Below, piece after piece: positions 17,816 through 32,000 of a stretch of DNA of 32,000 bases (position 1 is the stretch's first letter; each line of letters starts with the position of its first letter). The notes under the pieces are model-generated. The model searched no databases. It was not told where the DNA came from and saw only the letters and a program-made list of their open reading frames with translations. Location: the NCBI RefSeq assembly GCF_019464535.1, contig NZ_CP080507.1:2820001-2852000 (forward strand), in the 5' to 3' direction. This DNA comes from Horticoccus luteus. Its GTDB lineage: Bacteria; Verrucomicrobiota; Verrucomicrobiia; Opitutales; Opitutaceae. Position numbers and translations under genes: made by a program.

Positions 17816-18964
17816 ATGTCCGTTTTCAACTTCTTCTTTTCGCTCCCCGTCTCGCTTCCCGCCCGGACTACTGCTGGTCCGCTGTGGCGAGCACCCACCA
17901 TGCTCGCTGTCGCCGCTGTCCTGTCCCTGCTCAGCCCTGTCCGCACCTTGGCGGTCGACGTCGCGAGCGCCCCCGTTGGCTATGTTAATATAACTCTTCT
18001 ACGCGCCTCCGACACCATCGTCGCGGTGCCGTTGGCCGCGGGGATTGCATACAGTGGCAGGATAACCTCCATCCTCCCGTCCGCCGGCGGTCAATTTATC
18101 GTAAAGGTTTCCGGCGCGCCCGCTTTTGCGTCCGACCAATTCAAGCAATTTTACTATTTGCGCATCGGCACCGGCGCACGCCACGGCGCCTATTTCACCA
18201 TCGTCGCCAACACCGCGGATACGCTCACTTTAGACAGTGAGGGCAATGACTATTCAGCCCTGGCCGTCGGCGACACGATCAAGATCCGGCGTTACTGGAC
18301 GCTGGGCACTCTTTTCCCGGTCGCTGAATCGAACACCCCGCTCAATCCGCTCGCCGCCTCGCCCGGCCCGCTCGGTCCGCAACGCCGCTCGCAGATCATC
18401 CTCTTCGATCACGGCTACGAAGGCATCAATCTGCCCGCGGCCGGTGTGTATTATTTTACCTCCGCCGGTTGGTATCAAGCGGTGACGGGCAACCCGCGGG
18501 CCGACGACATCGTGCTCCATCCCGACAGCAGCTTCATCATTCGTCAGCCGGCGGTGATTGCGCAGGATACCGTCTGGGCGGTCGCGGGTTCAGTCGTCGA
18601 AGAAGACGAGCGGATCCCCCTCTTCACCTCATCCTCCGGCCCTCAAGACAACGTCGTCGCCCTCAACCGCCCCTTCGACACCGCCCTGAGCGCCAGCGGA
18701 CTTGACGCCTCGTTCGTCGCCAGCGCTTCCACGTTTCCCAACGACCGGCGCGATCAACTTCTCGTCTTCGATAACACCGTGCGCGCTTTCAACAAGACGC
18801 CCGTCGCCACTTATTATCGGGTTGGCCGCGATTGGATCAAAGCGGCTCCCGGCAATCCCACCGCCAACGACACCGTGCTCAACGCCACGACCGGCCTCGT
18901 CATTCGCAAGTTTCGGGACGCGACCAGCGCCTCGACCGAATGGGTGAGCCCCCACGTCAACTGA
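17816..18964 (+). CDS. gene A: exported protein of unknown function with an internal ~55-aa duplication (resembles the PVC-restricted TIGR02597 family, from memory)
   Basis: ATG at 17816, with an alternative ATG at 17900 giving MLAVAAVLSLLSPVRTLA as the signal peptide. Motifs 'APVGYVNITL', 'FYYLRIGTG..G.YFTI..NT..TLTLD' and 'IRRYWTLGTLFP'. There are two repeats of RR.Q...FD....N....YY....W....GNP.A.D.VL.....IR. The ORF-track GTG at 17609 lies upstream of the promoter-like island. Confidence 0.75.
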   Translation: MSVFNFFFSLPVSLPARTTAGPLWRAPTMLAVAAVLSLLSPVRTLAVDVASAPVGYVNITLLRASDTIVAVPLAAGIAYSGRITSILPSAGGQFIVKVSGAPAFASDQFKQFYYLRIGTGARHGAYFTIVANTADTLTLDSEGNDYSALAVGDTIKIRRYWTLGTLFPVAESNTPLNPLAASPGPLGPQRRSQIILFDHGYEGINLPAAGVYYFTSAGWYQAVTGNPRADDIVLHPDSSFIIRQPAVIAQDTVWAVAGSVVEEDERIPLFTSSSGPQDNVVALNRPFDTALSASGLDASFVASASTFPNDRRDQLLVFDNTVRAFNKTPVATYYRVGRDWIKAAPGNPTANDTVLNATTGLVIRKFRDATSASTEWVSPHVN

Positions 18965-18981
18965 GCCCGCGCCATCCCACC

Positions 18982-19863
18982 GTGCCCCGCCGCCTCCTTC
19001 TCCCTCTGCTGCTTCTCGGCCTCGCGCTGCTGACCGGCGTTGCCCATGCGTTTCCCCCGGCGCCGTATTTCACCCTCTACGGCACCGTGCGCGACGAACA
19101 AGGCCAGCGCATCCACGCCGCCGGCGCCGTGGTGGTCTTCTATAAAGACGGCGTCGAAAAACTTCGGCAGAACATCATCGAAAGCGACCTGCTCGACCAA
19201 AATTATCAAATCCGCCTGCGCATGGATATGCAGCGCGGCGGCAGCGTGAGCTACAGCGATCTGGCCAACGCCACCGGCTCTTCCTTCAGCCTCGCAATCC
19301 TCCTTAACAACATCGCTTACACGCCGGTCGAAATGTCCGTCACGCGCACCGTCGGCCAGCCGGGTCAACGCGTCCGCCTCGATCTCACGCTCGGCGTCGA
19401 TTCCGACGGCGATGGCCTTCCCGACGCGTGGGAACAGAGTCAACTCTTCGCCGCCGGCATCCGGCCCGGGCCCAACGGTTGGGATCTCAGCCTCATCGAC
19501 CGCGATGGCGACTTCGATGGCGATGGCGTTTCCAACTGGGCCGAATACGTCGCGGGCACCTTTGCCACTGATCCCACCGACTATCTCGCGCTTCAAATCG
19601 TCGCCAAGGGCACCGCGAGCGTGCACCTCCAATTCTTCTCCATCTACGGCAAAGTCTATTCGCTCGAATCGTCCCCCGATTTGAAAACGTGGAGTCACGT
19701 TTCCCTCTACACGACCAACCCCGAGCCGGCCGTCACCGACACACCCGTCGCTCCCGTCGCTCAAGCCTCTTTCCAAGCCACCTCGACCGGCGTCGTCGAC
19801 CTCTACGCGGATTCCGCCGCCGATTCCGTCCACGCTCTCTTTTACCGGTTAAAAGTTCGATGA
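18982..19863 (+). CDS. gene B: exported protein with thrombospondin-type-3-like Ca2+-binding repeats and a C-terminal beta-sandwich-like domain
   Basis: The GTG start at 18982 (VPRRLLLPLLLLGLALLTGVAHA/FPP) is the only start that gives a signal peptide without overlapping gene A. 'DSDGDGLPDAWE' and 'DRDGDFDGDGVSNWAEYVAGTFATDPTD'. The C-terminal 'KVYSLESSPDLKTWSHV...LFYRLKV' pattern is common in PVC surface proteins. Confidence 0.75.
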   Translation: MPRRLLLPLLLLGLALLTGVAHAFPPAPYFTLYGTVRDEQGQRIHAAGAVVVFYKDGVEKLRQNIIESDLLDQNYQIRLRMDMQRGGSVSYSDLANATGSSFSLAILLNNIAYTPVEMSVTRTVGQPGQRVRLDLTLGVDSDGDGLPDAWEQSQLFAAGIRPGPNGWDLSLIDRDGDFDGDGVSNWAEYVAGTFATDPTDYLALQIVAKGTASVHLQFFSIYGKVYSLESSPDLKTWSHVSLYTTNPEPAVTDTPVAPVAQASFQATSTGVVDLYADSAADSVHALFYRLKVR

Positions 19864-31190: not shown

Positions 31191-31735
31191 TGCCCCGCCC
31201 GCGCCTCATCGCCTTCGCCGCCGTGACCGCCGCCGTCGCCGTCGGGACTGCCGTGTATTTTTCTCAACGTCCGGCGCCCACCCCTGCGACCGTCGCTCCC
31301 GCCACCACTGCGCCCACGGCTCAAAGCCGCAGCGTCACCGTGACCGCCTCGCCCGAAGAAATATTCCGCCGCGCTTTCTGGCGCCACCCCGCCGCCGGCG
31401 ATCGCATCGTCCACGCCGACCGCCACGAATGGGTCGACGACGGACACGTGCAACGCTGGCAATGGTTCCTCGAAGTCCGCCCCGACCCGTCACTCCTGCA
31501 CGCGTTGCGCGACCCGGACACGTTCGGCCTCGTTTCCGCCGCGCCTTCCTCCGCCGTCGCCCAACCGTTGTCGCCGCCTTCGTGGTTTCCCTCCGCGGCG
31601 CAACGTCGCGGATACGAAGTTCTCCGCAGCCCCGCCGGCGGCCTGACCGTTTACTATCGCGCCGCCGATAATGTCCTTTTTGCCACCGATACCGGCCGCG
31701 GTTTCGCCGCTCCCGTCGTCGCCGTTTCCCGCTGA
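31190..31735 (+). CDS. gene F: small membrane-anchored protein (181 aa) of unknown function
   Basis: The ATG at 31190 shares one base with the gene E stop. N-terminal anchor MPRPRLIAFAAVTAAVAVGTAVYF, a Pro/Thr/Ala linker, then a Trp/His/Arg-rich globular part (FWRHPAAGDRIVHADRHEWVDDGHVQRWQWFLEV). Confidence 0.7.
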   Translation: MPRPRLIAFAAVTAAVAVGTAVYFSQRPAPTPATVAPATTAPTAQSRSVTVTASPEEIFRRAFWRHPAAGDRIVHADRHEWVDDGHVQRWQWFLEVRPDPSLLHALRDPDTFGLVSAAPSSAVAQPLSPPSWFPSAAQRRGYEVLRSPAGGLTVYYRAADNVLFATDTGRGFAAPVVAVSR

Positions 31736-31739
31736 AGCC

Positions 31740-32000
31740 ATGTTCTCCTCCCGTTCACTCCTCGTCGTCCTCTTCCTGCTGGCGGCATCCCGTCTCTGCG
31801 CTGCCGTCTCGCTCGTCGGTCAAGTGGGCACCCTTTTTCAAAGCGACGCCACCACGCCCATCCCCGCCGGCTCCATCGCGATCCTCGTCGCGGATACGAA
31901 CAAGACCAGCCATGCCGGCCTCGCCAATCCCGTTGGCACCACGCTGACCGTCGGCAGCTATCTCGGTGGCAACTCCGACGATCTTATCGTCGGACTTTAT
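31740..32000 (+). CDS. gene G: exported protein, 5' part only (runs off the window)
   Basis: This ORF is not in the ORF track because it has no stop in the window. I translated it by hand as MFSSRSLLVVLFLLAASRLCAAVSLVGQVGTLFQSDATTPIPAGSIAILVADTNKTSHAGLANPVGTTLTVGSYLGGNSDDLIVGLY. It starts 4 nt after the gene F stop and has a signal-peptide-like N-terminus. Confidence 0.65.
   Translation, partial: MFSSRSLLVVLFLLAASRLCAAVSLVGQVGTLFQSDATTPIPAGSIAILVADTNKTSHAGLANPVGTTLTVGSYLGGNSDDLIVGLY

Follow-up and report, generated by a model that had tools for sequence, protein, structure and literature searches.

The 32,000-nucleotide stretch of the Horticoccus luteus genome analysed here (contig NZ_CP080507.1; the whole stretch is referred to as the window) ends in a row of genes, A to G, arranged around gene E, whose product is a giant exported protein. 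These genes represent a conserved, syntenic and self-contained module of exported proteins that is found over much of Verrucomicrobiota. Protein E is a chimera of a β-sandwich scaffold of about 1500 residues and a rear part like that of TcA, the A subunit of Tc toxins, the scaffold standing where TcA has its helical shell. Structural modelling and profile comparison indicate that the last ~1200 residues of E are a remote homologue of the C-terminal half of TcA (the TcaB/YenA2-like half). Gene D encodes a relative of the adhesive fibres of Bdellovibrio. We propose that the operon specifies a Sec-exported complex without a toxin cocoon, built on the TcA-like subunit, that would adhere through lectin-like modules and fibres and insert a helical channel, a proposal that we consider evenly poised between right and wrong.

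The rear part of protein E resembles TcA

TcA is a pentamer that works with TcB and TcC; its helical hairpin forms the translocation channel and its C-terminal domain the funnel on which TcB docks. Residues 1532–2731 of E were modelled with AlphaFold2 (AF2) using 57 homologues, and the model comprises a helical domain, a connector, a hairpin with helices of 92, 48 and 107 residues and a C-terminal α/β domain (Table 1). In a Foldseek comparison with the PDB the top 19 matches, which are all the matches with an E-value of 1e-3 or lower, were TcA subunits (TcdA1, XptA1, XptA2, TcdA4, chain B of YenTcA and TcaA-TcaB), with E-values from 1.5e-7 to 1.7e-4, probabilities of 0.99–1.0 and 616–1064 aligned columns. 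The matches that follow are generic coiled coils at E-values of 0.02 or higher. The C-terminal domain of E, of about 340 amino acids, lies within these alignments; the TcB-binding domain of TcdA1 has about 190. The connector may be equated with the TcA linker.

The resemblance was also found by comparing profiles with hhalign, using 83 members of the E family on one side and SepA with 10 diverse plasmid TcAs on the other. Residues 2184–2563 of E aligned co-linearly with residues 1971–2279 of SepA over 296 columns (E-value 4.4e-6, probability 87%), an alignment that sets the tip motif P-x-v-G-L-A opposite PNIFGLA of TcA and pairs the YDLA...AYDYE motif at the start of the TcB-binding domain. 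Controls with the alignment of either side reversed gave E-values of 0.03–0.04. Against the TcA profile the hairpin alone reached 5e-5 (reversed control 0.08) and the C-terminal domain alone 0.012 (reversed control 0.58), and a weak co-linear second match covered the last strands of E (0.13). Hence the TcA-like C-terminus that the initial annotation had ascribed to the 2731-residue protein is confirmed by both fold and profile comparison. The helical region that would correspond to the TcA shell showed no similarity to TcA when its profile was compared alone, its segments from six diverse members had no Pfam match at E-values up to 10, and a tblastn search of plasmids with the C-terminus of E found nothing.

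Conservation among the 57 homologues is highest in residues 1551–1800 (27645–28394), with identities of 0.73–0.83, followed by 0.64–0.80 in the C-terminal domain. The former segment contains the conserved motifs GLIEIYET, EELALLRGRDD, YNRLYWNYTNG and FPQGHGDAYGHYLTA, and its invariant motifs include FPQGHGDAYGHYL. It had no Pfam, PDB or TcA profile similarity, and may serve as a metal site, as an enzyme-like pocket or as a latch between subunits. In the model, the predicted local distance difference test score (pLDDT) is 30–60 over the first ~270 residues of the helical domain, this segment included.

One protein of the viral structure library BFVD, A0A481Z1I0 (Mimivirus LCMiAC02, 1032 amino acids), matched the fold of the TcA-like part of E with an E-value of 7.5e-7 over 912 columns. 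It is the sole strong match in that library. The protein, which is uncharacterised, derives from a giant-virus bin of a metagenome and may represent either contamination of that bin or a genuine viral protein of the TcA type.

The front of protein E is a β-sandwich array

The AF2 model of residues 332–1531 consists entirely of strands (pLDDT 79), and its best Foldseek matches in the PDB are arrays of cadherin, protocadherin and immunoglobulin (Ig) domains, with no TcA among the top 50. A family member of 4919 amino acids carries eight Laminin_G_3 domains together with Big_9 and Cadherin_5. The insert at residues 820–964 is absent from two homologues (P0013 and P0041) and has 62% gaps and 0.20 identity among the aligned ones; it models as about 11 β-strands with pLDDT of 80–90. 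From the jelly-roll-like insert of the initial annotation the variable β-strand insert is retained, and jelly-roll topology is kept as a candidate label. A second insertion site, at residues 642–647, was located by pairwise comparison; other homologues are longer by about 180 residues at this point.

A conserved module in Verrucomicrobiota

More than 400 proteins of 2500–2900 amino acids are close homologues of E, with 50–92% identity, in Haloferula, Coraliomargarita, Luteolibacter, Pelagicoccus, Opitutales and unnamed Verrucomicrobia; they are named 'hypothetical' and once 'PA14 domain-containing'. When residues 1532–2731 were used as a phmmer query, at least 1564 clusters (50% identity) were retrieved at an E-value of 1e-3 or lower, 872 of them at 1e-30 or lower. 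The best 150 of the 1564 clusters are 664–5340 amino acids long, mostly 2100–5340, the shorter ones matching part of the query. Species-representative genomes contain at least 436 confirmed stretches with E relatives, in Opitutaceae, Oleiharenicola, Akkermansiaceae, Luteolibacter, Prosthecobacter, Chthoniobacteraceae, Pedosphaera, Limisphaerales and strain DG1235.

Synteny was analysed by tblastn of A–G against 84 loci (numbered with the prefix L below). The order BCDE(F) or CDEB is present in 45 of them, and shorter contigs carry fragments of these orders; E is alone in 16, where there is little or no upstream DNA or E is partial. The arrangement depends on the clade, being B-C-D-E-F in the closer one and C-D-E-B in the one at ~44% identity. 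C was found in 57 loci, B in 55, either before C or after E, and F in 23, after E and in the closer clade. Homologues of A adjoin E homologues only in Opitutaceae-type loci (L002, L004, L005, L018, L020, L025 and L026), A-type (TIGR02597) genes being located 3' of E in five Opitutaceae loci besides the two closest relatives, and G was found only in L002, L003 and L005. In a divergent locus labelled Acidobacteria (L099) a C homologue overlaps the start of an E homologue of 4180 amino acids (hmmsearch E-value 4e-86), and B, D or F were not detected there; because this locus keeps C and E without the others, C–E is taken as the minimal pair.

The seven-gene unit of the initial annotation is therefore reduced to a core of C-D-E with B and usually F, A and G being confined to the closest relatives or to Opitutaceae. 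Its expectation of more components downstream did not hold either: in the two nearest complete loci, one of them from an 84%-identical relative, the cluster ends with a G of 670 amino acids (the full-length homologue in L002) and unrelated genes follow, so that little should be lacking beyond the window end. As for a lack of synteny, which the initial annotation had regarded as fatal to a common system, B-C-D-E(-F) or C-D-E-B was found in essentially every locus with enough flanking DNA. The flanking genes vary between genomes, with different housekeeping neighbours on each of five long contigs (gene calls with Pfam marks), and the module is for this reason considered self-contained; no ATPase, secretin, usher or RHS gene was seen on those contigs.

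Several observations concern the setting of the module in other genomes. A LytS-type histidine kinase (PF06580) and a LytTR response regulator are encoded beside it in three of the five well-annotated loci (L002 2847–4699; L004 472–4464; L097 3909–5803) and are absent from the window; the pair is possibly a dedicated regulator of the module. Some genomes have several paralogous modules (L004, OZ257259.1; L018; L015; L024; L045; L023/L025/L036), sometimes in tandem, with the E gene directly 5' of B-C-D of the next module, and one Opitutaceae genome of 8.9 Mb has at least three giant E paralogues. The window E is ~70% identical to homologues from another class (P0031, Haloferula, Akkermansiaceae) versus 55–58% to the Opitutaceae copies L018, L020 and L025. 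Because E is closer to Haloferula than to those copies, this pattern implies that the paralogous lineages are old and very strongly constrained, or else that there was transfer from one class to another. Modules of the Verrucomicrobiota type also occur on contigs of metagenome-assembled genomes with names such as Enterobacteriaceae, Klebsiella pneumoniae and Bifidobacterium (L017, L058, L072 and L073), and L022, L045 and L099 are labelled Armatimonadetes, Planctomycetaceae and Acidobacteria, respectively; such assemblies may be mislabelled or misbinned, and the reach of the E family beyond Verrucomicrobiota is uncertain. In L004 (19396–20220) a PEP-CTERM protein of 274 amino acids is encoded after the A-type gene, downstream of the E homologue, a hint that the module of some genomes can include proteins sorted by an exosortase.

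Protein D, a relative of mosaic adhesive trimer fibres

The model Bdello_MAT_N (NF053851), which describes a Bdellovibrio subfamily, matches all 53 homologous D N-domains (best E-value 2.8e-13). The window protein matches model positions 7–152 of 162 with an E-value of 1.5e-10; its scores, 34.1 bits with the whole protein and 41.1 bits with the N-domain, are under the NCBIfam cut-off of 60 bits. Only the first ~150 residues are conserved in the D family, total lengths ranging from 391 to 1711 amino acids. A repeat-rich stalk lies between the N-domain and the collar, and the tips vary between homologues, being Collar or, in one of them, Peptidase_S74. The tail-collar domain that had been read from the sequence in D was recovered with PF07484 at an E-value of 8.5e-22.

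The mosaic adhesive trimer (MAT) fibres of Bdellovibrio bacteriovorus have a signal peptide, a conserved β-rich domain of ~130 amino acids and tips with or without S74; they are surface-exposed, and their N-domain presumably binds a surface element that has not been identified (PMC10769870). D is like them in having the signal peptide directly before a domain of ~130–140 amino acids, a variable stalk and tip, and variants with and without the S74 domain. It differs in belonging to another phylum, in its single copy per module, as opposed to 21 paralogues in Bdellovibrio, and in being encoded beside a TcA-like giant, a linkage that is not mentioned for Bdellovibrio in PMC10769870. From this likeness in sequence D is regarded as a relative of the MAT fibres.

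D also resembles phage tail fibres and short tail fibres in its Collar domain, its weak match to a receptor-binding tip and the Peptidase_S74 of a homologue; it is unlike them in being Sec-exported, from a module without phage structural genes. These fibre-like parts would be accounted for if the locus were a remnant of a phage or mobile element, or if unrelated genes for exported proteins were neighbours by chance, to which may be added that the module occurs in different genomic contexts, that the L098 copy adjoins primase and DUF5906 genes and that an IS481 element lies 11 kb upstream in the window. However, a search of 2.9 million IMG/VR contigs yielded no relative of E, the module contains no phage head, tail, terminase or integrase genes, gene order is kept across orders and classes, and the codon composition is that of the flanks. 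Synteny and the IMG/VR negative largely rule out a phage or mobile origin, the single 'Mimivirus'-bin match notwithstanding, and we regard this explanation as barely credible.

The partner proteins A, B, C, F and G

Searches of Pfam and NCBIfam with A–G gave TIGR02597, Collar, a weak short-tail-fibre tip, a weak TSP3 and a weak MAT_N match, and nothing was accepted for C, E, F or G. When A, B, C, D and E were compared with one another, matches did not go beyond the level of the signal peptide.

C is the most constant partner of E. It looks β-rich and has no relative in Pfam, NCBIfam or PDB sequences by sequence and profile searches, in which no known family carrying its motif NPFVHxYHPDHDN was found either; the His and Asp residues of this motif suggest a metal-binding site.

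In the B family two loops are invariant, with D140, G145, P147, D148 and W150 in the first and D177, D181 and G182 in the second, and the pair aligns weakly with calmodulin EF-hand pairs (E-value 0.006–0.05). The TSP3_bac model (PF18884) matches 37 of the 48 B homologues at E-values of 0.1 or lower, the best being 1.8e-9. The Ca2+-binding TSP3 repeats claimed for B are kept as candidates, as most of the family matches the model; the window copy is below threshold (17.2 bits against a cut-off of 25). On reading the sequence, the regions flanking the loops seem to be β-rich. A weak Trm5_N match for B was treated as noise.

F begins with one hydrophobic anchor, followed by a linker rich in Pro, Thr and Ala and by a conserved domain of ~120 amino acids in which F59, P67, R78, W90, F93, W132, F133, G169 and G171 are invariant among 22 homologues. 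No Pfam or PDB relative was found by profile searches, and a weak anti-sigma match (E-value 0.019, cut-off 100 bits) was treated as noise. G had no match in NCBIfam. A, which is outside the conserved core, scores as a member of TIGR02597 with 216.7 bits against a cut-off of 50 over model positions 9–357 of 363; no function is described for this family.

Organisation of the locus

Table 1. Coordinates of the cluster and of the parts of its products in the window
Feature	Position	Strand	Description
Intergenic region before gene A	17429–17815	+	388-nt gap after ClC channel gene; likely operon start
Gene A	17816–18964	+	382 amino acids; TIGR02597 family, exported, lineage-specific accessory
Gene B	18982–19863	+	293 amino acids; signal peptide, N-terminal region, Ca2+-loop pair, C-terminal region ending FYRLKVR
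B, putative Ca2+-binding DxDxDG loop pair	~19393–19557	+	TSP3_bac in family
Gene C	19860–21545	+	561 amino acids; signal peptide, His/Asp motif
C, motif NPFVHxYHPDHDN	21261–21299	+	Residues 468–480; invariant in 44 of 44 aligned homologues
Gene D	21586–22947	+	453 amino acids; modular fibre
D, conserved MAT-like N-domain	21634–22053	+	Bdello_MAT_N match
D, tail-collar domain	22468–22638	+	PF07484
D, receptor-binding-like tip	22855–22944	+	S_tail_recep_bd, E-value 0.0019 (weak)
Gene E	22995–31190	+	2731 amino acids; giant exported protein
E, residues 1–331	22995–23987	+	Signal peptide and conserved N-terminal region; 0.43–0.67 identity to 57 homologues
E, residues 332–1531	23988–27587	+	All-β array of Ig/cadherin-like sandwiches (AF2 model)
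E, residues 820–964	25452–25886	+	Variable β-sandwich insert
E, residues 1555–2030	27657–29084	+	Helical domain, best conserved; TcA shell counterpart by fold
E, residues 2031–2126	29085–29372	+	Connector, mostly non-helical (model secondary structure)
E, residues 2127–2389	29373–30161	+	Long α-helical hairpin; tip loop YPSDVGLATDPS at 2219–2230
E, residues 2390–2731 and stop	30162–31190	+	C-terminal α/β domain resembling TcB-binding domain
Gene F	31190–31735	+	181 amino acids; start overlaps E stop (TGATG)
F, membrane anchor	~31205–31261	+	One N-terminal hydrophobic stretch
Gene G	31740–32000	+	Cut at window end; first 86 codons, signal peptide

Much of what the initial annotation had said of the layout was borne out. 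The junctions between consecutive genes from A to G are +17, -4 (ATGA), +40, +47, -1 (TGATG) and +4 nt by the list of open reading frames (ORFs) and inspection of start codons, and each product begins with a signal peptide or a membrane anchor, as read from the sequence. Signal peptides were called by eye from the n/h/c-region pattern, and end in ...GVAHA↓F (B), ...TLHA↓Q (C), ...TAFA↓Q (D), ...ALHA↓Q (E) and ...RLCA↓A (G), the cleavage context (L/F)(H/A)A↓Q being common to C, D and E. That of E, MSPVRLLRPLLLMGALASASFTALHA↓QYE (residues 1–26, 22995–23072), is of the typical Sec type. In A a hydrophobic stretch lies behind a long N-region, and the start codon is uncertain (17816 or 17900). The gap upstream of A contains a terminator-like hairpin (17568–17583) and a sigma-70-like match (17660–17689), both candidates by consensus. 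Within the window, family searches found no ATPase, secretin, usher, phage head, TcB, TcC or RHS gene, and there was no Rfam match anywhere.

The native composition of the cluster was likewise upheld, its G+C content at third codon positions (GC3) being 0.75–0.86 versus 0.74–0.85 in the flanking housekeeping genes. Throughout the window (1–32000) the + strand has a negative GC skew, which is strongest, -0.2 to -0.3, over the cluster. The third-position ratio C/(C+G) is 0.71–0.82 in the cluster, 0.60–0.72 in + strand housekeeping genes and 0.29–0.47 in - strand genes; by these ratios the strand accounts for part of the 'GC3 skew', which is somewhat more pronounced in the cluster. An ORF of 2246 codons runs antisense to E (24372–31112, -), and others of 300–470 codons are antisense to A–D. 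Because the GC3 frame plot marks the + strand frame as coding over 17816–32000, in a window of 65% GC, these ORFs are by-products of high GC and strong codon bias.

The upstream 17 kb encode an AIR-synthase-like protein, a CAAX protease, dihydroorotase-like and aspartate carbamoyltransferase proteins, phosphoribosyltransferases, HflX, a DEAD-box helicase and the ClC channel, and hold one IS481 element. This IS481-family element is complete (4946–6404), lies between the CAAX-protease and dihydroorotase-like genes and has a transposase gene at 5031–6293 (rve, rve_3 and HTH domains) and 50-nt terminal inverted repeats (4946–4995 / 6355–6404) that are 90% complementary. The longest ORFs of a phosphodiesterase-family gene (9660–11333, -) and a phosphoribosyltransferase gene (9022–9861, -) overlap by ~200 nt (9660–9861), and translation of the downstream gene probably starts at a point further inside its ORF.

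Proposed mechanism and alternatives

In the mechanism that we propose, E would oligomerise like TcA after export. The β-array, its lectin-like inserts and the separately encoded, putatively trimeric fibre D would bind a glycan or protein target, D having a conserved N-domain for docking on the complex and a variable tip, and the helical hairpin of E would insert into a membrane. Since no TcB–TcC cocoon is encoded nearby, the complex would act as a pore or adhesin alone, or would handle other cargo. C would be the first candidate partner for the C-terminal funnel domain of E, and B may be a Ca2+-dependent structural partner; F, which is membrane-anchored and translationally coupled to E, may serve as an assembly or self-protection factor in the envelope of the producer. 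The analysis demonstrates the gene structure, the export signals, the synteny and the relationships of E to TcA (by fold and profile) and of D to the MAT fibres; oligomerisation, location, target membrane and the roles of B, C and F are the elements that we infer.

A number of results weigh against this proposal. The model of residues 1532–2731 reaches a pLDDT of only 69, and against TcA it has template modelling (TM) scores of only 0.14–0.19, owing to a different orientation of the long helices; low scores are expected for elongated multi-domain chains with uncertain domain orientation. The E profile aligned weakly with the single SepA sequence (E-value 0.087), the match becoming convincing only with the TcA alignment and the reversed controls. 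E matched none of the Pfam families VRP1, Neuraminidase and TcA_TcB_BD (no Pfam match at an E-value of 0.1 or lower), and searches of PDB sequences by phmmer and profile hmmsearch returned coiled-coil noise and no TcA. The hairpin, which should form the channel, is together with the insert the least conserved segment (0.32–0.41 identity), and its tip loop is weakly hydrophobic at most. The N-terminal α-helical shell of TcA is absent from residues 332–1531, whose model is all-β and whose comparison with the SepA N-terminus gave an hhalign E-value of 0.27; as this shell encloses the channel, E may not form a prepore of the TcA style. Neither SepB-like or SepC-like ORFs (phmmer) nor RHS-type ORFs (YD-motif count) were found within up to 10 kb on either side in 87 loci. 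Finally, the module is conserved broadly, and apparently since long ago, among free-living degraders of polysaccharides, which suits a housekeeping surface structure no less than a toxin.

The search for toxin partners bears directly on whether the locus is part of a conventional Tc toxin, with the cocoon genes for TcB and TcC located at another place in the genome. Other bacteria reportedly have Tc loci that are split and dispersed, and E matches TcA by fold and profile, the TcB-binding-like domain included. Such a toxin is nevertheless hard to reconcile with the lack of such ORFs in the flanks (up to 10 kb) of the 87 loci and with a giant protein that is Sec-signalled and has no Pfam TcA signatures. 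Moreover, the families of B, C, the D N-domain and F gave hhalign E-values of 0.16 or higher throughout against SepB, SepC and the SepA N-terminus, from which none of B, C, D and F appears to resemble TcB or TcC; another conserved set of partners replaces these. A dispersed Tc toxin is accordingly very improbable in our judgement.

The main rival holds that E is a giant surface adhesin or envelope scaffold whose TcA-like rear is a stalk for oligomerisation and anchoring, so that no foreign membrane is perforated and the complex serves to keep cells attached to algae, particles of polysaccharide or other surfaces. It draws on the similarity of the front 1500 residues to cadherin/Ig arrays, on the lectin-type domains of the family (Laminin_G_3, and PA14 or LamG in source names), on the exchangeable tips of fibre D and the predicted Ca2+ binding of B, on the wide and conserved distribution of the module, of native composition, in free-living Verrucomicrobiota, and on the hairpin being the least conserved segment. 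A mere stalk, however, leaves unexplained both the 64–80% identity of the TcB-binding-like domain and the tip motif that the hairpin has in common with TcA, and we know of no adhesin that uses the TcA-like fold of E. This explanation is doubtful in our view, and yet has a real share of the probability.

A different role for the channel would be in the producer itself. E could be a TcA-derived outer-membrane translocon, assembled in the periplasm, that passes D, B and C to the surface. Every product is Sec-signalled and no other export machinery is present in or near the module in the 87 loci; TcA channels are known to pass unfolded protein, and the S74 intramolecular chaperone of some D homologues would support folding after translocation. 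The route of MAT fibres and their attachment to the Bdellovibrio surface have so far no explanation (PMC10769870). This reading is entirely inferential, however; it would leave the lectin-like front of E in the periplasm with no obvious purpose, and general systems encoded elsewhere, such as a type II secretion system, could carry out the export. It is improbable in this form. Only slightly better is the prospect, still unlikely, of a cocoon-less TcA-derived machine in which E or C is the surface element that docks MAT-type fibres and the channel, placed in the cell's own outer membrane, constitutes a new translocon or display system.

Significance and comparison with known systems

Tc toxins are insecticidal and pathogenic injection devices and engineerable translocators, known as three-part A-B-C systems. 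The family described here, large and unannotated (at least 1564 clusters), fuses an A-subunit channel module to an adhesin-like scaffold, is Sec-exported and has another, conserved set of partners, and its hosts are abundant free-living Verrucomicrobiota of soil, freshwater and sea. If the channel were functional, the Tc injection principle would be wider in taxonomy and architecture, and C, F and the highly conserved helical domain, which has a His/Asp motif, would be new parts open to testing. The pairing of a MAT-like fibre with E offers a candidate anchor for MAT fibres, a question left open by PMC10769870; if E or C docks fibres of this type, the operon names a candidate partner of the Bdellovibrio predation fibres. 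Were the translocon in the own outer membrane real, it would amount to a system for secretion or display that is typical of Verrucomicrobiota and has not been recognised before. To our knowledge few envelope structures of this phylum have been tied to genes, and the E module is among its largest conserved gene products without a function.

Literature searches returned no paper in which Tc toxins or tail-collar proteins are connected with these genera, and none mentioning TIGR02597. The undescribed system of the initial annotation is therefore new in that no paper or informative name was found for it, yet it is built from known parts, namely a TcA-like E, a MAT-like D and a TIGR02597 protein A.

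In comparison with giant Ig/cadherin adhesins, residues 332–1531 of E have the same array fold, and family members contain Cadherin_5, Big_9 and Laminin_G_3; such adhesins differ in ending in type 1 secretion, autotransport or sortase signals, and not in a TcA-like module. TcA is described as devoid of a Sec signal and as released by lysis or by a type 10 secretion system (PMC10847048). E departs from this by its Sec signal peptide and from TcA in general by the lack of linked TcB/TcC, both of which count against the proposed mechanism. It further departs from TcA in having no VRP1, Neuraminidase or TcA_TcB_BD match, in its β-sandwich front instead of an α-helical shell, in its partners B, C, D and F, and in its hosts, which are free-living Verrucomicrobiota and not insect or human pathogens. 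The receptor-binding β-domains of TcA vary between homologues, and in E also variable β-domains are inserted at fixed sites. E is moreover like TcA, and in particular like its TcaB/YenA2-like half, in the order of helical domain, connector, very long hairpin and C-terminal α/β domain, in an overall size of ~2500–2700 amino acids, in having TcA subunits as its only strong PDB fold matches, and in the hairpin tip and the start of the TcB-binding domain, which align by profile. Hence E is distantly related to TcA and has the channel feature, but fails several of the features that define TcA, and is not classified as a TcA here.

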